64,000 nt of DNA from a phage, in sequence record OZ346205.1, one strand, 5' to 3'. Below, one piece after another: positions 24,086 to 61,555 of the stretch. The notes under the pieces are model-generated. The model worked only from the letters and a program-made list of their open reading frames with translations. It ran no database searches and was not told the origin of the DNA. The position numbers and the translations under genes are program-made. Position 1 is the first letter of the stretch; every line of letters starts with the position of its first letter.

Positions 24086-24331
24086 ATGAAAAGCAATAAA
24101 GGTTATAACGGTTACAAAAACAAAACTCATTGGAATGTAAGCCTTTGGATTAATAACGATGAGTCATTGTACCGGTTGGCCCAAGGCTTTATTAACGCCA
24201 ATGCTAATCGTAATGATGCGGCGCGGGATATGATGCTTTTTCTGGAGCTAACCGGACAAGATAAGACCCTGGACGGCTTCAAGTACAGCACTACGGCGAT
24301 CCGTGCCGCGATGGTTGGAATGAAACACTAA
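24086..24331 (+). CDS. hypothetical protein
   Basis: ORF 24005..24331; ATG 24086 after AAGAAGAGG. Confidence 0.5.
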   Translation: MKSNKGYNGYKNKTHWNVSLWINNDESLYRLAQGFINANANRNDAARDMMLFLELTGQDKTLDGFKYSTTAIRAAMVGMKH

Positions 24332-24386
24332 AAGCACATAGCTGCCTTACCCTGGGGCTGTGGTAGCGGCCCCATGAATAAGGTTA

Positions 24387-24869
24387 CTAACAGAAGAGAA
24401 TAAACACCATGAAACAGAAATTAATCGATGCAGTGATCTTGGTTATTGCCCTGGGTATTGGCCTGATTGCAACCATGTCTAATATGATCTTGTCTTCCAA
24501 CGGTATCGGGTGAGGTTGGCAAATGATCACTAACAAAACAGGCAAAACGGAATTTTTACGCAACTTACAGATCGGCAAGCCTGAGATCTGGTACTGCACT
24601 AAAACACCGCGTGACGAAATGGCTTCAAAAGGGGTCATGAACGAATAAACGGCATCATCATCTGCTTCAGGGAATGCTCCCAAAGACTTCATGTCTGAGC
24701 CCTTGACAAATACAAGGTTTTGATCAAAAGCTTCTTGGGGATCAATCCGATACATATTTCGTAGAATATCGCTTACCTCCTCATCAAGAGGTGAGTATGC
24801 TGTGCACGTTTTTCCGATCAAGCTTTGAGAATCAGGGTATCCACCTGAAGTTTTAAAATAAACAATCAT
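24387..24869 (-). CDS. hypothetical protein (extent uncertain)
   Basis: 160-aa ORF with GAGGTGA RBS; N-terminal 70 aa look protein-like, C-terminal part overlaps candidate + strand small ORFs. Confidence 0.35.
   Translation of the reverse strand: MIVYFKTSGGYPDSQSLIGKTCTAYSPLDEEVSDILRNMYRIDPQEAFDQNLVFVKGSDMKSLGAFPEADDDAVYSFMTPFEAISSRGVLVQYQISGLPICKLRKNSVLPVLLVIICQPHPIPLEDKIILDMVAIRPIPRAITKITASINFCFMVFILFC
24409..24513 (+). CDS. small hydrophobic peptide (34 aa), candidate
   Basis: Leader-type hairpin at 24354-24373 and AACACC-ATG context; conflicts with antisense ORF 24387..24869. Confidence 0.3.
   Translation: MKQKLIDAVILVIALGIGLIATMSNMILSSNGIG
24523..24648 (+). CDS. small protein (41 aa), candidate
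   Basis: GGGTGAGG 7 nt before ATG; conflicts with antisense ORF 24387..24869. Confidence 0.25.
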   Translation: MITNKTGKTEFLRNLQIGKPEIWYCTKTPRDEMASKGVMNE

Positions 24870-24904
24870 ATAGTATCACCTCTGGTAAGAGATGGGATTC
24901 CTTT

Positions 24905-24940
24905 CCCACAAATAATTACAAACCTTCCTTATCGAGGAAG
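24905..24940 (-). terminator. rho-independent terminator ending the minus-strand block
   Basis: On - strand: CTTCCT-CGATA-AGGAAGG followed by TTTGTAATTATTTG. Confidence 0.5.
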
Positions 24941-24959
24941 TATGCTAATCCAAGCAGGA

Positions 24960-25229
24960 TTATTCCTCTACAATCTCATACACATCAGGAGTTACAATCA
25001 ACTCTTCTCCGTTACCCGGTGCAATAAACACCACCAAACCTTCAGGTGTGTGCTTTTTAGCCATCTCGATAACATCTTCCCGCAGGGCTGGCTCCATCAG
25101 ATCAAAACCTTCACCCAGGGCATCACGAACCACCTTCATATAGTCCACTGGTTGTGCTTCAACAATCATGCCTTCAACCAGACCACAATTTTTGTCTGCC
25201 AGCTCAGTTTTGAATAATTTAATTTTCAT
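24960..25229 (-). CDS. hypothetical protein (MKxK..L paralogue family, divergent member)
   Basis: GAGGAGA RBS; N-term MKIKLFK, C-term IVEE as in paralogues at 26486, 26730, 30387. Confidence 0.5.
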   Translation of the reverse strand: MKIKLFKTELADKNCGLVEGMIVEAQPVDYMKVVRDALGEGFDLMEPALREDVIEMAKKHTPEGLVVFIAPGNGEELIVTPDVYEIVEE

Positions 25230-25255
25230 TTAGAGGTCTCCTCAATTATTTGATA

Positions 25256-25357
25256 TTAATAGCCGTAACCTAACACATTAACTACAACTGCGATTGCAAA
25301 CATAATTTCAAAGCATGCAATCTCTACATTTGGGACTAATTTCTTGATCACACCCAT
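25256..25357 (-). CDS. small hydrophobic peptide (33 aa), candidate
   Basis: GAGGTG RBS; fills gap between HPF and next gene. Confidence 0.3.
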   Translation of the reverse strand: MGVIKKLVPNVEIACFEIMFAIAVVVNVLGYGY

Positions 25358-25366
25358 TGTAGCACC

Positions 25367-25684
25367 TCATTCTCTAAAGTCAATCTTTACTTTGCCTTTC
25401 CCCTTACCTTTCTTTCCACCGCATTTAGCCAGTTGACGTGCTGCAACATCTACCATACGGTCAGTTGCCTCGTAAGCATCACTGCCTTTAGCTTTGGCAA
25501 TAACTTCTTTTCCAGAATTGTCAAAAATGAACGCCATAACTTCCTGGTGATCATTTTCAACTTTTACACTCACACGTGCATAGTTGGCAGAGGGATGCAA
25601 ACGCTCCAGCTTAGACATTTTGTGGGAAATGAAAGACACCATACCTTCAGGGATTTCTACGTTGCCAGTGATTTCAATTTGCAT
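25367..25684 (-). CDS. hpf: ribosome hibernation promoting factor / RaiA (YfiA) family protein
   Basis: MQIEITGNVEIPEG...KLERL...VSVKVEND...AKAKGSDAYEATD...ARQLAK aligns along its length with bacterial HPF/YfiA. Confidence 0.75.
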   Translation of the reverse strand: MQIEITGNVEIPEGMVSFISHKMSKLERLHPSANYARVSVKVENDHQEVMAFIFDNSGKEVIAKAKGSDAYEATDRMVDVAARQLAKCGGKKGKGKGKVKIDFRE

Positions 25685-25703
25685 AACGTGTTCCTTTTAA
25701 AGA

Positions 25704-25722
25704 AGAGGGAACCAAACCCTCT
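25704..25722 (-). promoter_or_regulatory. leader hairpin / bidirectional terminator-like stem
   Basis: AGAGGG-AACCAAA-CCCTCT between promoter and HPF RBS. Confidence 0.4.
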
Positions 25723-25731
25723 TTGAAAACA

Positions 25732-25760
25732 ATGATACTAAATCTGAAGCGTTGTGTCAA
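25732..25760 (-). promoter_or_regulatory. sigma70-like promoter for hpf
   Basis: - strand TTGACA - 17 nt - TATCAT. Confidence 0.55.
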
Positions 25761-25766
25761 CAGTTT

Positions 25767-26057
25767 TTACAGATTGTTGTCGATAGTTTTTAAAATATCC
25801 ACAGCAAGATCTGCCATTTTTCGAACATACTCTGCAAACTCAACAGGATCCTTGATCAAAGAATTCACAGGGTCGTACCCTAGAGCGTTCAAAATGGCTG
25901 CAGCATCTACAACCTTCTCATCATTTGCGAAGATCTCTCCATCAAACTTGTAGGTCCATTTTGAGTCAATCTTGGCAGGGAATGATTGGTCAACGCTTGT
26001 TACACCATCCTTTTTAAACGCTCCGGTGTTATCAGTGTCTAGAACTAAATCCATCAT
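25767..26057 (-). CDS. hypothetical protein
   Basis: ORF track; RBS GGTGAGG. Confidence 0.5.
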   Translation of the reverse strand: MMDLVLDTDNTGAFKKDGVTSVDQSFPAKIDSKWTYKFDGEIFANDEKVVDAAAILNALGYDPVNSLIKDPVEFAEYVRKMADLAVDILKTIDNNL

Positions 26058-26074
26058 GTTAGTACCTCACCGTT

Positions 26075-26473
26075 TCAGTTTAGCTTTTCTTCAACAACCC
26101 CATAGCTCGGGACAGAGTCAAGAGCTTTCTGGTTTAAAAGTGGTGTAGCAGAATCTGCAAACGGTGTCCAAGTTTTTGTTCTGGCGTTCCAGTAATGCTT
26201 CACTCTGGAATCTGGATGCACTATAACAAAAACTTTTTCACTTGTCAACACATTAATTTCTTCCACACCCCTGCTGATAATTTCTCCGTCATATCCCCCG
26301 GTCTGGTATCCTTCGTACCAGGTTCTTGCATAGGCATAGCCAGCCTGCCAGCATGCAGCCTCCTCCGAGGTGGAGACTACGTAGAAGTCTTTCTCAAATT
26401 CTGGGATACGCCCTTGCTTTACGCTCCAAGCTCCGCGAATTTTCATTGTAACTTTGAATAGTTTATTTTTCAC
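26075..26473 (-). CDS. hypothetical protein
   Basis: ORF track, 132 aa. Confidence 0.5.
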   Translation of the reverse strand: MKNKLFKVTMKIRGAWSVKQGRIPEFEKDFYVVSTSEEAACWQAGYAYARTWYEGYQTGGYDGEIISRGVEEINVLTSEKVFVIVHPDSRVKHYWNARTKTWTPFADSATPLLNQKALDSVPSYGVVEEKLN

Positions 26474-26485
26474 AACGGTTACCCA

Positions 26486-26740
26486 TCACAGTTCTACAAT
26501 ATCTGCATCTGACCCTGCCCCAAAGGCATAATAGGACTCTTCCCCGAAATAATATTCCGGTGCACCAGCAGCGATCAGGTCTGATCCCAAAATGAATACC
26601 ACGTTGTGGCCTACATAGCTGTGATTTTGCCGCACAGGATCATCCCACGGCAACCCTTCGAAGTATACCGCAGGGACGACCTTTCCTTTCAGGAAGGATT
26701 GCCCCAAGTAGACGTTAGAATCAAGAATTTTAACCTTCAT
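26486..26740 (-). CDS. hypothetical protein (MKVK..L paralogue)
   Basis: MKVKILDS...DLIAAGA...IVEL. Confidence 0.5.
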   Translation of the reverse strand: MKVKILDSNVYLGQSFLKGKVVPAVYFEGLPWDDPVRQNHSYVGHNVVFILGSDLIAAGAPEYYFGEESYYAFGAGSDADIVEL

Positions 26741-26957
26741 GATCGTCCTCCACTATCTCTACATCCTCACCTAGGGCAAAGTTGTAGGTCCACTGACTGT
26801 CAAAGCATTCCTGAGATGCACCAGCGGCAATAAGATCTGCCCCTTTTATTTTTAAAAGGTCAGGGTAATCTTCGTTAGGGACAGCAGTAAACACTTTCCC
26901 TACTAAAGGCTCCTGACCAATATAGAAGCTTGAATCTAAAACTTTAACTTTCATCAA
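26730..26957 (-). CDS. hypothetical protein (MKVK..L paralogue)
   Basis: MMKVKVLDS...DLIAAGA...IVEDD. Confidence 0.5.
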   Translation of the reverse strand: MMKVKVLDSSFYIGQEPLVGKVFTAVPNEDYPDLLKIKGADLIAAGASQECFDSQWTYNFALGEDVEIVEDDHEG

Positions 26958-27241
26958 CGGTCTCCATCAGGTGGTTGTGGGACGTAAACACTGTTACGAA
27001 TATCGTCCGCAGTATAGTAATAAGTGTCTCCAACCCTATCTCTGGCTGCAATGTACTCTGCTATACCAATAAGTGCCATTGATTTGGTGGCGTATCTTCC
27101 CCACTCGTTAGCTCCCCAGTAGAATTTAGACCAGTAGGGAATAATACCGAACAAATATACCTTTTGACGAACTTCCCAGTAAGTGCCTTTTCCGACAAGT
27201 TTAAACTCTACTTCACTACTGTTAATCTTTTTCATTATCAA
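26954..27241 (-). CDS. hypothetical protein
   Basis: ORF track; coupled stop/start. Confidence 0.5.
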   Translation of the reverse strand: MIMKKINSSEVEFKLVGKGTYWEVRQKVYLFGIIPYWSKFYWGANEWGRYATKSMALIGIAEYIAARDRVGDTYYYTADDIRNSVYVPQPPDGDR

Positions 27242-27534
27242 TCTCCCTCTACCGTGGTCGGATTGTCAGTAAGAAATTGAGCATTGGCTGGAGGCACGCC
27301 TGACATTTTCCACACAACCATAAGTTTGTAACCAGGAACTCTATTAAGTGCAGATCGAGTAGAGTTTGTGCACGTATACTTTCGCTTTCCAAACCCGTTC
27401 TCCATCATAATCCAGTACCCAGTATCTTTGTCACCAGGTATCGGTAGACCACCTTCATCAACCCACTGAATGGACCACGGCACGATGGCTACAGCTTTAT
27501 ATTTAAACTTTTTAAACCACTCAAAAAGTTTCAT
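27238..27534 (-). CDS. hypothetical protein
   Basis: ORF track; GAGGCTGA RBS. Confidence 0.5.
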   Translation of the reverse strand: MKLFEWFKKFKYKAVAIVPWSIQWVDEGGLPIPGDKDTGYWIMMENGFGKRKYTCTNSTRSALNRVPGYKLMVVWKMSGVPPANAQFLTDNPTTVEGD

Positions 27535-27537
27535 AAT

Positions 27538-27627
27538 TCAGCCTCGCATAGACATAATCACTATAAACAGGCAAACAATGAATCCGAATGCCACGCCACC
27601 CATAAACGTTAATATTGATGCAATCAT
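27538..27627 (-). CDS. small hydrophobic peptide (29 aa), candidate
   Basis: GAGGCTGA RBS identical to the neighbour's; fills inter-ORF gap. Confidence 0.3.
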   Translation of the reverse strand: MIASILTFMGGVAFGFIVCLFIVIMSMRG

Positions 27628-27629
27628 AG

Positions 27630-27827
27630 TCAATCAGCCTCGCTTGGCAACTCTTCTACCTTAACATGCCGAAAAGTGTTACCGTAATGGTTGATCCATG
27701 ACATCAGCTCGCTTTCTTGCTCTTCCTCTGGGATGAACTCTCGAATGCTGACAAGTTTTAAGAAAACCCAATCACAATCTGCACCCATTCTACCAGACAG
27801 GCAATAGTGCTTCATAAAACCCCCCAC
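27630..27827 (-). CDS. hypothetical protein
   Basis: ORF track. Confidence 0.45.
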   Translation of the reverse strand: MGGFMKHYCLSGRMGADCDWVFLKLVSIREFIPEEEQESELMSWINHYGNTFRHVKVEELPSEAD

Positions 27828-27832
27828 CTGGT

Positions 27833-28027
27833 TTAGAATATTGCTTCTTCCATTGCACCTGAGAGCAACAAAGAGGTGATCTGGCTAACATTCATCTCAG
27901 ACTCTACTTCCTCCCCTTTGAAAGGTTCGCGGCAGAATAGGACTGTTTCAGGACTTTTACTTCGAACAATATAATACAAATCATTCAATGTGTTGTAGTA
28001 ATAAGTGTTAAAACGTAAGTTTTTCAT
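27833..28027 (-). CDS. hypothetical protein
   Basis: ORF track. Confidence 0.45.
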   Translation of the reverse strand: MKNLRFNTYYYNTLNDLYYIVRSKSPETVLFCREPFKGEEVESEMNVSQITSLLLSGAMEEAIF

Positions 28028-28311
28028 TTTCTAGTCCCCTTCTTAGATTTTTGTGTAGAAACGCTTTCTGCAATACGAGACAAACGTTCTTCTGAAGCCT
28101 TGCCTATTCCAGGTTTTTTGAGTGGGTTATCTTTATGACCACAATCCAATTGGATATTGGATACCTCTCCAACCTTGTAAGTCAATTCTAGCAAAAGGTT
28201 GTCGTCCTTGTCAAATGTTCTTACGATAAATTTTTTATCGTTCTCCTGAACTTCGTATCGGGTACCCGCAGTATACAGCATGGTGCCATCCGCATAGGAT
28301 ATCCAGATCAT
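28024..28311 (-). CDS. hypothetical protein
   Basis: ORF track; coupled to upstream gene. Confidence 0.5.
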   Translation of the reverse strand: MIWISYADGTMLYTAGTRYEVQENDKKFIVRTFDKDDNLLLELTYKVGEVSNIQLDCGHKDNPLKKPGIGKASEERLSRIAESVSTQKSKKGTRK

Positions 28312-28655
28312 TGAACCTCCTTCTGCTGCAACAGCATTAACTCTTTGTTGGAGATTTTTACTGCTGTTTTTATTGTTCCATCTTCACGAAACCACGACCA
28401 GAACTCTACAGTGTCACCACTATCAAGTAAAGCATGCCCATGGTAAAAATCTTTGTCCTTAGACAGTTTCTCATCTATATCTGCATCAACACATTCGTGA
28501 TCCATAGCATTTTGCCTGAACGCATCGGTTATGCCAATGCACGCCTTGCTCTCAAGACTGGTATATCCGATATCTTTTAATTCAGTTTCCCAAGTCCAGT
28601 ACCCTATAAAAGCTAAAACAGCTACCCACAGTAATAACGTTTTAATCTTTGGCAT
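28308..28655 (-). CDS. secreted or membrane-anchored protein
   Basis: N-terminal hydrophobic segment LLLWVAVLAFIGYWTW. Confidence 0.5.
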   Translation of the reverse strand: MPKIKTLLLWVAVLAFIGYWTWETELKDIGYTSLESKACIGITDAFRQNAMDHECVDADIDEKLSKDKDFYHGHALLDSGDTVEFWSWFREDGTIKTAVKISNKELMLLQQKEVQ

Positions 28656-28717
28656 TCTCTCTACCTCTTTCTTAGTTTATTTCACTATGGCACATCCTTT
28701 GTGCCATATCTCAACTA

Positions 28718-29188
28718 CTACTTAAATAGTAGTTCAAAATAGTGCAAAATTAACAGAAGTTGAACTACACCTAGTGCAACGGCGAGTATGTTAATCTTAG
28801 AATCGAAAAACTTCTTAACTTTTACTCTAAAAGGTTCCTTAATGTCCTTTACGATCCTATCTATAGATGACCTCATATCTCTGATTACCATCCTGAACAT
28901 TAAAGACGGATGCTCCCCCATCTCTGTAACGGAATCAAAAACATACTCTCTTCGGTCATAAGGGCCGCCAGCTCTGCGTATTAACCTCTCCACAGAGACT
29001 TCGAACGTCACACCTGTAACGTAATCATCTATAACAAGTCGTGACGGGTCTTTACCTTTACTATCAAGAGGTATCAAAGTTATCTTTCCAGATTTTGTTA
29101 AAATTTCCCCTTTTTCAAGCAAGGTGTACCAATGCTCTCTGCCAAGACTGTTGAGGCACGTTTTTACATATTTAACAAACATCGTCAC
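28718..29188 (-). CDS. hypothetical protein with C-terminal TM segment
   Basis: ORF track; hydrophobic C-terminus; two perfect palindromes in the downstream gap 28660-28715. Confidence 0.5.
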   Translation of the reverse strand: MTMFVKYVKTCLNSLGREHWYTLLEKGEILTKSGKITLIPLDSKGKDPSRLVIDDYVTGVTFEVSVERLIRRAGGPYDRREYVFDSVTEMGEHPSLMFRMVIRDMRSSIDRIVKDIKEPFRVKVKKFFDSKINILAVALGVVQLLLILHYFELLFK

Positions 29189-29370
29189 CCCTCATCGCAC
29201 GTCTGATATAACCACTCTATAAAATCTTGATACCATTCGCCCTCTGAGCGCTCCGTAGGCCAATAATCTTCACCCTCTCGTGCATTAAAATCTGAGTATT
29301 CAACTTTCCACTCCTTTACCAGCTCGTGGAGAAGGTTTTCAGCCTGCTCTAAAGATTTATTTTTTACCAT
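29185..29370 (-). CDS. hypothetical protein
   Basis: ORF 29185..29388; start moved to second ATG after AAAAAGGAGA. Confidence 0.45.
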   Translation of the reverse strand: MVKNKSLEQAENLLHELVKEWKVEYSDFNAREGEDYWPTERSEGEWYQDFIEWLYQTCDEG

Positions 29371-29589
29371 TGCTGTCTCCTTTTTCAAGATAGTTATACA
29401 TCAGAACTGCACCACCTAAGATGGCTACCAGTAACAATACCCCAGATAGCATCTCAATAAACATGGCTTGAAACACTGGAAGGCCTCCCTAAATTAACGC
29501 ACCATTTTAAATACATGCTCTTTTCCCATAAAGGTGCCTGGCTAAGATCTGCGTAGAACGCAATCTCTTTAAGAACAGTATAAACAGTT

Positions 29590-29826
29590 TTAGGTGCGGT
29601 CTCCATCCCTACCCTCCTTTTTCTCCTTCCTGATATTCTTGTAGTAATCAACTAGGCACATTATTACGATGAAGATAACAACAGGCCAAAAAGGTGCAGC
29701 AGTGATGATGGTGATAAAATCATCAAACTTCACCCTTCGTCTGGACACGATGCATACACCTGTCAAGAATACCGCTGTTATAACGGACATTACCAGGTAA
29801 CCTATTAGCACAACATTTATACTCAT
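29590..29826 (-). CDS. small membrane protein (2 TM, charged C-terminus; holin-like topology)
   Basis: Two hydrophobic helices then KNIRKEKKEGRDGDRT. Confidence 0.45.
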   Translation of the reverse strand: MSINVVLIGYLVMSVITAVFLTGVCIVSRRRVKFDDFITIITAAPFWPVVIFIVIMCLVDYYKNIRKEKKEGRDGDRT

Positions 29827-29856
29827 TGGTCCTCCCTTTGTAGGTTAAATTGTATA

Positions 29857-30390
29857 CTACAAATGGTCGCTGAGGGTGTCAAGAAAATTATCCCGTTCTT
29901 TCTCAGAGTTTTCATGTGTGTAGCTGAAAAACATATCGAGAATAACCTTATTGATATATTCCAGCTCCTCTGTGTTCAGATGCTTAGCAGGATCTACAAT
30001 GACATCCCAAATATCATACAGACCACACTCATGATACCCATAACGCCACTCAATTGTCAAGCTGAGCGGCAAATCTTTACCTTCACAAACAACCTTCCAT
30101 CTACATATGTTGGTATCTGGTCGTACCTGTGCACGGTACACCTGCACAAAATCCAATTTGAATTTGAGGTACTCGTCATACAATTTAAGCACAAAGCTCT
30201 CGATTTGTGGAGACACTTTTGCAGCAAACTGTGCGTATTTGTACTTGCACTGGATGATCTTTCTGCGTTTTGCAGTTAAATTTTTTGCCGCCAGTTGTTC
30301 TTCAGTGTATCTCCACCTACGATCAACAAACGCAACAGGGTCTTTGTCCCCATAGAGGTCTTCCCAGTTAATCAGAAGCATACCTGTCAC
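29857..30390 (-). CDS. hypothetical protein
   Basis: ORF track, 177 aa. Confidence 0.5.
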   Translation of the reverse strand: MTGMLLINWEDLYGDKDPVAFVDRRWRYTEEQLAAKNLTAKRRKIIQCKYKYAQFAAKVSPQIESFVLKLYDEYLKFKLDFVQVYRAQVRPDTNICRWKVVCEGKDLPLSLTIEWRYGYHECGLYDIWDVIVDPAKHLNTEELEYINKVILDMFFSYTHENSEKERDNFLDTLSDHL

Positions 30391-30620
30391 TCCTCCACAA
30401 CTTCAAGGCCTTTACCGCCTCGCTCTGGCAGATTACTTAAAGATAGGTAATACATATAATCAGGAGAGATCCTGCCAGACTCTGCACCTGCAGCTAGTAA
30501 ATCCTTCCCTTTAACCAGGACAACATTCTCGTTTGCAGATAGCCGTTTTGCTTCCACAATTTTACCAACACAGTCAACCAAGGAAGGGTACCCTAAATCT
30601 GTAAGAAATTTAACTTTCAT
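30387..30620 (-). CDS. hypothetical protein (MKVK..L paralogue)
   Basis: MKVKFLTD...DLLAAGA...VVEE. Confidence 0.5.
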   Translation of the reverse strand: MKVKFLTDLGYPSLVDCVGKIVEAKRLSANENVVLVKGKDLLAAGAESGRISPDYMYYLSLSNLPERGGKGLEVVEE

Positions 30621-30657
30621 GCTACCTCCTACCTACCGTCCCTGGTAAGATAAATTA

Positions 30658-31056
30658 TTACTGAACAGAGCGCGGTGCTGGGAAGGATAACTCTTCTAAA
30701 GAGAAGATTTCATTTCCTACCACCCAAGTTGCTGGGTCATCTGGATCAACAGGTTGGATAATCATTACCTCATCCGCCTCGCACACACGTTTCCCACCCA
30801 TAGTAGCGTCAGCCACTAACATACGCGGCTCTTCAGAAATGCACAGGTAGCCACCTCGGCCCACTGTTCCTTCCACGGGATCCTGCCCTTTGACCACAAT
30901 GAATACCTTCTCTCCTGTGGAGATATTACTTTTCACACTAACAGTTTGACCAACTTTAGATGTACCGATCTTGGTGGCTTCAAACATTAAATCCCGAATT
31001 ACTGTTGCATAGTTGCCGGACACTTTCTTACCTTCTTTAGTAATCTCAATCTTCAT
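30658..31056 (-). CDS. hypothetical protein
   Basis: ORF track. Confidence 0.5.
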   Translation of the reverse strand: MKIEITKEGKKVSGNYATVIRDLMFEATKIGTSKVGQTVSVKSNISTGEKVFIVVKGQDPVEGTVGRGGYLCISEEPRMLVADATMGGKRVCEADEVMIIQPVDPDDPATWVVGNEIFSLEELSFPAPRSVQ

Positions 31057-31328
31057 AATCTAGGCTCCTTAAATGAATCTATGTAATCAATTAAATCCCA
31101 AGCATCGCGATGGGCTGTCAGAGGGTATACTTCTCCGAGAGGGATCATAGCAATAAGTCTATCAAAAACCCAGTCTGGACGCAACATTTTATGGTGATAT
31201 TCCCACTCACCTTCCACAGATTTTTTCTGAGTGATCAGGATCTCTGTGTAGTGTTTCGCCTGTCTTGAGTAGATTGAAAATGACTTGTACATAAATGACC
31301 CCCTCTTGTTGAAAACAACAATACACAA
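31053..31328 (-). CDS. hypothetical protein
   Basis: ORF track. Confidence 0.5.
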   Translation of the reverse strand: MCIVVFNKRGSFMYKSFSIYSRQAKHYTEILITQKKSVEGEWEYHHKMLRPDWVFDRLIAMIPLGEVYPLTAHRDAWDLIDYIDSFKEPRL

Positions 31329-31613
31329 CTACCAGGTTACTGTCAAGTAGGCAACCGTATTATTTTTCTCTGGGGAGATGCCAACAACATCTACCTGCAG
31401 ACCTCCTGCCCTTAAATCTCCAACAATGTGCGGGAAGTAATCTGAGAGATGCGAGGGTAGATTTATCGAAAATCCGCACCCCAGAAAGCCTGCTAACGCT
31501 TTATTTTGTATCTCCCCTACAATCGCATCATAAATGGAGTTAAGCTCGTCAGGGAGTGTTACAGGGCGTTTTAGCGCTAGCTGGTGTAATTTGTCCTTAG
31601 CACTCATTTTCAT
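31329..31613 (-). CDS. hypothetical protein
   Basis: ORF 31329..31643; start moved to ATG 31613 (ATGA overlap with upstream stop, GAGGT RBS). Confidence 0.45.
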   Translation of the reverse strand: MKMSAKDKLHQLALKRPVTLPDELNSIYDAIVGEIQNKALAGFLGCGFSINLPSHLSDYFPHIVGDLRAGGLQVDVVGISPEKNNTVAYLTVTW

Positions 31614-60742: not shown

Positions 60743-60817
60743 GCCCTGTTAGCTTAGTGGATAAAGCAGCGGCCTTCTAAGCCGTTGACACTGGTTCGAG
60801 TCCAGTACGGGGTGCCA
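60743..60817 (+). tRNA. tRNA-Arg (anticodon UCU)
   Basis: Cloverleaf by eye: acceptor GCCCTGT/ACGGGGT, anticodon loop CTTCTAA, T-loop TTCGAGT, encoded CCA. Confidence 0.8.
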
Positions 60818-60821
60818 AATT

Positions 60822-60908
60822 GGGGAGTTATCCCGTAGAGGTAGCGGTGTAGACTGTAAATCTATTGTCATTGCGACTCGGGTGGTTCGACTCCACCACT
60901 CCCCACCA
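60822..60908 (+). tRNA. tRNA-Tyr (anticodon GUA)
   Basis: Acceptor GGGGAGT/ACTCCCC, anticodon loop CTGTAAA, long variable arm, T-loop TTCGACT, CCA. Confidence 0.75.
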
Positions 60909-61022
60909 AATTTATATTTTTAGATGCATAAATAATACAGATAATGGCATTGATATTTATCGTCGTTTATACTAGTCACTAACTGCTCGAAAATCAGTGT
61001 CATTATCAGTATAATTTATAAA

Positions 61023-61113
61023 GGAGGGTAGGGAGCAATGGTGCTCAAGCGGTATTGAAAACCGTCCCGTTGAGGATGACTCGATGATGGTTCGATTCCA
61101 TTACTCTCCGCCA
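61023..61113 (+). tRNA. tRNA-Ser (anticodon UGA)
   Basis: Acceptor GGAGGGT/ACTCTCC, anticodon loop ATTGAAA, long variable arm, T-loop TTCGATT, CCA. Confidence 0.65.
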
Positions 61114-61211
61114 CATTGTTGACCTTGTAATTAAGCGAAAGCCGGAAGCAGAACCGGATTATCAAATGTTACAGTCGTCATCGCCGACTAGCAACATGGT
61201 CAACATACTGA

Positions 61212-61310
61212 GCTAGGTAAGCCCTTTGGCAAGGGCGAGGATTTTTAATCCTGAAAATAGACGAGGTAGTCGTTGAATACATAGGTGGTTCGATTCCATC
61301 ACCTAGCACC
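61212..61310 (+). tRNA. atypical tRNA-like gene (99 nt; anticodon loop TTTTTAA, UUU?)
   Basis: Acceptor GCTAGGT/ACCTAGC, D-arm GCCC...GGGC, T-arm GGTGG-TTCGATT-CCATC, but 30-nt extra region and imperfect anticodon stem. Confidence 0.4.
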
Positions 61311-61315
61311 TTTTT

Positions 61316-61391
61316 GCTGATGTAGCACAATCGGTAGTGCAATTGATTTGTAATCAATAGGTTGTAGGTTCAAGTCCTGCCATCAGCACCA
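61316..61391 (+). tRNA. tRNA-Thr (anticodon UGU)
   Basis: Acceptor GCTGATG/CATCAGC, anticodon arm ATTGA-TTTGTAA-TCAAT, CCA. Confidence 0.8.
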
Positions 61392-61392
61392 A

Positions 61393-61467
61393 GGCCCTGT
61401 AGCTGGAAGGTTCAAGCAAGCGACTCATAATCGCCAGACGGTGGTTCAATTCCACCCAGGGCCACCA
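61393..61467 (+). tRNA. tRNA-Met (anticodon CAU; could be Ile-lysidine type)
   Basis: Acceptor GGCCCTG/CAGGGCC, anticodon loop CTCATAA, T-loop TTCAATT, CCA. Confidence 0.75.
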
Positions 61468-61478
61468 AATAGTAAATA

Positions 61479-61555
61479 CTCCGCGTAGCTCAGCTTGGTA
61501 GAGCGCCTGATTTGGGATCAGGAGGTCGAGTGTTCGAATCACTCCGTGGAGACCA
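61479..61555 (+). tRNA. tRNA-Pro (anticodon UGG)
   Basis: Acceptor CTCCGCG/CGTGGAG, D-arm GCTC...GAGC, anticodon arm CCTGA-TTTGGGA-TCAGG, T-loop TTCGAAT, CCA. Confidence 0.8.

Follow-up and report, generated by a model that had tools for sequence, protein, structure and literature searches.

The phage DNA analysed here, a 64,000-nucleotide (nt) stretch of sequence record OZ346205.1 (the window), encodes four members of a family of small paralogous proteins, which we designate B, C, D and E (Table 1). The window belongs to an rV5-like coliphage (Vequintavirus): a megablast search with positions 24300-31100 matched 155 phage records, and the best matches, which were ~98% identical and fell in Vequintavirus, included the BASEL phages Bas53 JohannBauhin and Bas57 MaxTheCat (rV5-like Escherichia coli myoviruses). 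Duplication has enlarged the family in Vequintavirus to five detectable copies, whose rV5 counterparts are gp122 (open reading frame [ORF] 127; D), gp135 (ORF140; C), gp136 (ORF141; B), gp142 (ORF147; E) and gp143 (ORF148; F), the last of these being gone from the window. The members are predicted to fold as SH3-like barrels, and their most likely role would be that of a dispensable, early-expressed protein-binding module. The descriptive part of this account (family, members, fold and conservation) is secure; to the mechanism that we favour, in which these proteins would act as binders that modulate the host, we assign a probability of roughly 0.3 to 0.4.

The initial annotation had described four ORFs (A, B, C and D) as a paralogous family. 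All four are present where it had placed them, on the minus strand, each with a Shine-Dalgarno-like sequence 5' of it, and the claim of paralogy stands for three: B, C and D are related beyond chance, whereas ORF A is at chance level. Smith-Waterman scores, assessed with 1000 shuffles per pair, gave z = 23.9 for B-C, 12.4 for C-D and 8.0 for B-D, with 0/1000 shuffles matching the observed score, and BLASTP E-values were 1e-16 (B-C) and 2e-8 (C-D). The same three proteins match phrog_5009 end to end (1e-32 to 1e-38). The result that the annotation itself had named as fatal to the idea, alignment statistics short of significance, was thus obtained for ORF A and not for B, C and D.

Member E, located just downstream of ORF A, is a real member that was absent from the initial list. 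A profile hidden Markov model (HMM) built without E found it at an E-value of 1.4e-5 among 901 window ORFs, its Smith-Waterman z-scores against B, C and D were about 5-5.7, and BLASTP matched it to D at 3e-5. The family domain occupies residues 1-84 (24618-24869), the other 76 codons (24387-24617) being read-through, and orthologues in relatives are 87 amino acids (aa) long. HMM scans of the window ORFs found no further family copies elsewhere in the window. The four members in the window are therefore B, C, D and E, and the number given by the initial annotation was right by coincidence. That these four resemble one another by chance, or are not genes, is refuted and keeps only a negligible share of our belief, since z-scores of 5-24 are accompanied by independent profile and PHROG matches, ratios of nonsynonymous to synonymous substitution (dN/dS) of ~0.1, homologues in unrelated phages, Shine-Dalgarno sites and a confidently predicted fold; only ORF A, with its chance-level statistics, speaks for such an explanation.

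The family consensus is MKVKLLxxGGYxGxxxxVGKVVxA...IxGx(D/E)LIxAGAxxxxFxxxxxYxFxxGxExEVIEE. An AlphaFold2 model of C, based on a 34-sequence alignment, reached a mean predicted local distance difference test (pLDDT) of 93.2 and a predicted template modelling score (pTM) of 0.81, with strands at residues 2-5, 21-27, 30-37, 56-61 and 65-69 and a helix at residues 38-43 that carries the DLIAAG signature. By structure comparison, the predicted model is a five-stranded, strongly bent antiparallel barrel, and the family fold is thus modelled as an SH3-like five-stranded beta-barrel of ~70 residues with one short helix bearing G-x-(D/E)-L-I-x-A-G-A; the closest known small barrels of this SH3-like kind are the KOW domains of Spt5/NusG, PsaE, eukaryotic SH3 domains and the C-terminal domain of retroviral integrase. 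Member B has a 14-residue insertion (LPWDDPVRQNHSYVGH region) that separates strands 2 and 3, and D represents a D-type subfamily with a C-terminal insertion (NLPERGGKG) that is common to gp40 of phage mEp021. Foldseek matches in BFVD were confined to small, uncharacterised proteins of phages that infect enterobacteria and other hosts, including an 87-aa protein of Vequintavirus CM1 (template modelling score 0.80), which has the length of the E orthologues. The ankyrin consensus LL-x-AGAD also resembles the family's DLI-x-AGA-(D/x)-P, and designed ankyrin-repeat proteins were hit by the family profile at E = 0.004-0.4. However, the match spans 13-23 residues only, no single stretch is significant, and the predicted fold is a beta-barrel rather than a series of helix-turn-helix repeats; we rejected an ankyrin relationship as a short-motif coincidence between different folds.

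The place of ORF A (rV5 gp141, ORF146) in the family was not demonstrated, as it fails every statistical test. The initial annotation had read its terminal motifs correctly (the protein starts with MKIKLF and ends with IVEE), and these are all that it has in common with the family; the central GK(V/I)V and DLIAAGA motifs also ascribed to it are absent, with EGMIVEA and GFDLMEPAL at those places. Shuffle z-scores against B, C, D and E ranged from -0.9 to 1.7, the family HMM gave no match to A in the window even at E <= 10 with filters off, and the A orthologue in a relative genome was not matched at E <= 1. Profile comparison with hhalign aligned only the N-terminal 28 residues (probability 9.7-19.8%) and gave a probability of 1.3% against the E/F/B subgroup. 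Judged by its sequence, ORF A is a separate, well-conserved family (phrog_11868) with similar termini. We nonetheless keep it as a possible distant relative, on account of its possession of both terminal motifs, its adjacency to E/F, a five-strand model with an insertion and a weak overlap in BFVD matches, and there are roughly even odds that it is a very diverged tandem relative of the family, a relationship that is unproven. In a post hoc test, the N-terminal motif occurred in 4 and the C-terminal motif in 7 of 343 ORFs, and A has both. Its AlphaFold2 model (pLDDT 90.3) has the order b1-b2-3 helices-b3-b4-b5, the three-helix insertion lying between strands 2 and 3 at the same position as the insertions of B, E and F; the model has no signature helix, and Foldseek retrieved the family's BFVD neighbours with it only at non-significant E-values. 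A terminator-like hairpin (24940-24924) is situated between A and E.

Pooled Nei-Gojobori estimates across six genomes (the window and five other Vequintaviruses) gave dN/dS values from 0.09 to 0.13 for B, C, D and E, within the range of neighbouring genes (0.01-0.21). Gene set and order are also fixed in relatives, with an identical order in Bas53, Bas57, rV5, FV3, bov10K2, 10C2 and S127. Selection on these four genes is purifying, contrary to the diversifying selection proposed initially. Changes in copy number were seen in two forms, a C/B hybrid gene and the deletion in the window. In two metagenomic Vequintavirus contigs (L015 3001-3213 and L016 3001-3213), one 70-aa gene that joins C residues 1-46 to the C-terminal part of B stands in place of the C-B pair. 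Going by its sequence, this hybrid is what unequal recombination across the shared GADLIAAGA segment would be expected to produce.

The deletion concerns the fifth member, F. Similarity between the window and every Vequintavirus relative in the database breaks at the junction listed in Table 1 and resumes ~9.8 kb further on in the relatives; the missing stretch extends from 87535 to 97324 in MaxTheCat (L005 1237-11024) and holds F, about 25 small hypothetical genes and a 2.5-kb gene-free region. It lies at the meeting point of two convergent transcription arms. Microhomology at the junction amounts to a few bases only, and none of 50,697 phage records spans it; the junction may mark a deletion mutant, of natural or laboratory origin, or be an artefact of assembly. 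It replaces the last three codons of E (...TPFEA-MVVG followed by a stop becomes ...TPFEA-ISSRGV...), such that the frame continues to 160 aa, antisense to two small plus-strand genes. In relatives, F (Bas53_0147) is the next gene after E and encodes 110 aa, beginning with MKVRFI and ending with ...GSDVEVIEE; it was matched to the family by hhalign (92%, E = 6.6e-7) and by HMM (about 1e-5). When the 2262 six-frame ORFs of a complete relative genome were scanned, exactly five members and no others were recovered. Provided that the genome of the window represents a viable phage, neither F nor the native C-terminus of E is required. The idea of an accessory block of duplicated genes, put forward in the initial annotation, is therefore partly sustained: three of the four named ORFs are true paralogues, and the end of the small-gene run, where the 9.8-kb stretch with one family member is deleted in the window, appears to be dispensable, but the membership of ORF A is not supported.

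Beyond Vequintavirus, an exhaustive profile search of 1.84 billion cluster representatives returned 43 family matches at E <= 0.001, and a word-indexed search of 5.8 billion clusters returned 26, none of which was named or had a Pfam domain. All readable genomic contexts of homologues were those of phages, and the family is phage-restricted. B, C, D and E had no Pfam match at E <= 1, and no NCBIfam model matched other than through sub-threshold chance hits; DUF7210 and other weak Pfam hits were discarded as noise (1/34 members, E = 0.07 or worse). D-type proteins occur in the temperate siphoviruses mEp021 (gp40), mEp013 and mEp554 with 41-49% identity to D (tblastn), the gene lying between the late regulator Q and the holin gene in mEp021-like phages, and prophages in 35 of 5426 complete E. 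coli genomes contain copies, every one of them annotated as hypothetical. In other phages, family members are found at moron-like or accessory sites; those in 42-46-kb phages lie either in replication or early modules or within small islands made up of short genes. Two unrelated 42-kb phages have two copies each, and a distant 125-kb Vequintavirinae-like contig keeps the whole D...C-B...A-E-F arrangement. The domain is repeated in tandem within one chain in P0013 (L004 703-1497; three copies) and P0017 (two copies), and it is joined to unrelated C-terminal regions in P0029, P0033, P0027 and P0049. For the C-terminal regions fused to the domain in multidomain homologues, the only matches were PHROGs of unknown function, such as phrog_2652 and phrog_11651 for P0013.

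Two further observations were made among these records. In one 42.9-kb metagenomic phage with two family members, a Sequestin-family (PF21825) gene adjoins the terminase gene (L018 11730-11930), apart from the family genes. Moreover, 18 records labelled "Campylobacter phage" (MG0656xx; e.g., C14, C7, A12a and A142) contain members 96-100% identical to those of rV5-like E. coli phages, and the Campylobacter host labels of these records look doubtful.

The family genes are embedded in a long series of small hypothetical genes in the non-structural, minus-strand arm, amid nucleotide-metabolism genes; this arm also holds nrdD/G, PhoH, a ClpP-like protease, an adenine methyltransferase and a ribosome hibernation factor homologue (25367-25684, minus strand; Pfam Ribosomal_S30AE, E = 9e-12; very strong purifying selection, dN/dS 0.03). 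Genes 82-163 of rV5 were described as one non-late transcription unit in a paper whose main text names no family member among the virion proteins (PMC3606486). The rV5 record annotates sigma-70 promoters in the family arm. Within 24300-31400, we counted 23 sigma-70-like sites against 14.2 +/- 3.9 in shuffles; all eight sites with 10 or 11 of 12 positions lie on the gene strand, and one 11/12 site (25760-25732) sits at the annotated rV5 promoter P144, upstream of the hibernation-factor gene. Gene C shares 1 nt with its upstream gene and, at its 3' end, 11 nt with the start of B, and these overlaps suggest that translation is coupled. A TTG at 26957 is also a possible start for C; the annotation of a relative uses the ATG given in Table 1.

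In the mechanism that we favour, the predicted barrel would serve as a stoichiometric protein-binding module, probably as a homo- or hetero-oligomer (e.g., C with B, or E with F); in the course of infection, the paralogues would each bind a different protein, of host or phage origin, and modulate it. The strand 2-3 insertion, the loop that follows the signature helix and the C-terminal insertion of the D-type could confer specificity. Oligomers are suggested by the tandem-repeat fusions and by the adjacent or overlapping gene pairs (C/B overlapping, E/F adjacent), while a non-essential, host-linked role is favoured by the presence of D-type genes in unrelated virulent and temperate coliphages, by accessory positions in other phages and by the loss of F here. 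Several findings weigh against this interpretation. Most conserved residues (Y11, G38, L41, G45 and F59) look like core or turn positions, and hence no conserved interaction surface is demonstrated. Likewise, D is near-neutral in charge (-1.5), so acidity is not universal, the case for oligomerisation comes solely from fusions and gene adjacency, and low dN/dS with fixed synteny would fit a phage housekeeping function equally well. No functional link was provided by Pfam, NCBIfam or any named PHROG, the structural neighbours are all uncharacterised, and family members matched none of the known anti-defence families with Pfam models (e.g., Sequestin, PF21825). Our literature searches found nothing on phrog_5009 or mEp021 gp40, nor any treatment of these rV5 genes as paralogues or as factors against host defence. 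A bolder version, which we consider rather unlikely, is that the family would constitute a new phage interaction domain whose hetero-oligomers would neutralise distinct host defence or stress proteins or sequester immune signals, with the D-type exchanged between phages for an E. coli-specific target; the family would then represent a new class of proteins for anti-defence or host takeover.

Charge bears on two of the alternatives. Net charges of -6 to -10 were calculated for B, C and E, and the isoelectric points (pI) of homologues have a median of 4.5 (n=32; range 4.05 to 9.14). A KOW/Sm-like regulator of gene expression, which would bind nucleic acid, the ribosome or RNA polymerase instead of inhibiting host proteins, could make use of the conserved basic residues K2, K4 and K20, and both the proximity of the family genes to the hibernation factor gene and the location of the mEp021 homologue directly after the start of the Q antiterminator operon are in keeping with such a role. 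We nonetheless regard it as unlikely, because most members are strongly negative and none of 34 members matches KOW (PF00467), in line with the lack of Pfam matches described above; the neighbourhood, moreover, is not conserved outside Vequintavirus. The same acidity would suit a special case of the binder, in which the proteins mimic DNA and block the site with which host proteins (e.g., restriction enzymes, nucleoid proteins or repressors) bind it. An SH3-like DNA mimic is known from Myxococcus, the antirepressor CarS, and the charge of B, C and E is carried on 74-84 residues with acidic (I/V)VE(E/D) C-termini, in genes that are located at accessory sites in several phages. D and a number of homologues, however, have a neutral or basic character (pI up to 9.1), and we think the mimic improbable. 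Still less credence is due to an oligomeric sponge for a small immune signalling molecule, of the Tad, Acb or Sequestin type. Small size, occurrence in multiple copies and tandem-repeat fusions indicative of oligomers would agree with it, as would the conserved, glycine-rich G-x-D-L-I-x-A-G-A signature and the Sequestin gene elsewhere in the genome of one family-bearing phage, but no sponge family was matched in Pfam, no sponge structure was among the fold matches, and the conserved residues look structural.

Table 1. Coordinates of family members, ORF A and features around the deletion in the window (values after PHROG names are E-values)
Feature	Position	Strand	Description
Deletion junction	24619..24621		Megablast matches break; three-way alignment
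Small gene	24409-24513	+	34-aa hydrophobic peptide (MKQKLIDAVILVIALGIGLIATMSNMILSSNGIG); orthologue of bas57_0122
Small gene	24523-24648	+	41 aa; 71-aa bas57_0123 truncated by deletion
Member E	24387..24869	-	160-aa ORF; phrog_13920 1e-58, phrog_5009 6.5e-4; dN/dS 0.09
ORF A	24960..25229	-	89 aa; phrog_11868; dN/dS 0.04
Member B	26486..26740	-	84 aa; tandem partner of C; phrog_5009 4.7e-32; dN/dS 0.09
Member C	26730..26954	-	74 aa from ATG at 26954; phrog_5009 1e-38; dN/dS 0.13
Member D	30387..30620	-	77 aa; phrog_5009 8.3e-36; dN/dS 0.13

Elsewhere in the window, in a tRNA cluster (60743-61555), ARAGORN called a 99-nt tRNA of undetermined identity with a four-base anticodon (atcc) at 61212-61310 on the plus strand. 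Its counterpart in MaxTheCat is 97 nt long and annotated as tRNA-Lys. The unusual length hints at the presence of an intron or at a structure that is atypical.

An uncharacterised family of small proteins in a large phage is a common situation, and the practical value of these results is modest: three PHROGs are joined into one superfamily with a predicted fold, and its membership is corrected. At least one copy and about 25 neighbouring genes are absent from this genome and may hence be dispensable. Should the binder model be true, a compact, confidently modelled and easily expressed scaffold would join the host-modulating proteins of phages, and the BASEL Vequintaviruses would offer five natural specificity variants of it, one of them horizontally shared with temperate coliphages.

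The closest known entries are the PHROGs and the orthologues in related phages. GenBank already lists the gene products as hypothetical proteins, and phrog_5009 already groups B, C and D. This PHROG, which E matches weakly, is labelled "unknown function", as are its satellites phrog_13920 (E), phrog_13661 (F) and, from other phages, phrog_13367, phrog_8603 and phrog_7345. PHROGs places E and F in separate families and gives no fold, name or function; the link of phrog_13920 and phrog_13661 to phrog_5009 was made here by profile comparison, and distant homologues match several of these PHROGs simultaneously. This link is new, together with the corrected membership (A out, E and F in), the fold, and the recombinant and deleted variants. 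The rV5, Bas53 and Bas57 orthologues show 93-100% identity and agree in both order and orientation. The window differs from rV5 in that gp143 is missing and its gp142, without the last three codons, is extended to 160 aa. In the main text of the rV5 genome paper, none of our search words for paralogy or duplication occurred (PMC3606486).

Outside this group, the nearest relatives are mEp021 gp40 (AXN54159.1) and the homologues in mEp013, mEp554, mEp515 and E. coli prophages, which are D-type proteins of the same length as D and have in common with it the C-terminal insertion G-x-K/R-G-R/K-G-L-E/Q-V-V-E; the mEp paper does not mention gp40. The mEp021-like phages differ from Vequintavirus in being temperate siphoviruses with a single copy, which lies at Q-holin and not in a replication and nucleotide-metabolism arm. 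The family displays the defining feature of no functionally characterised family and is best filed with the small SH3-like accessory proteins of phages.

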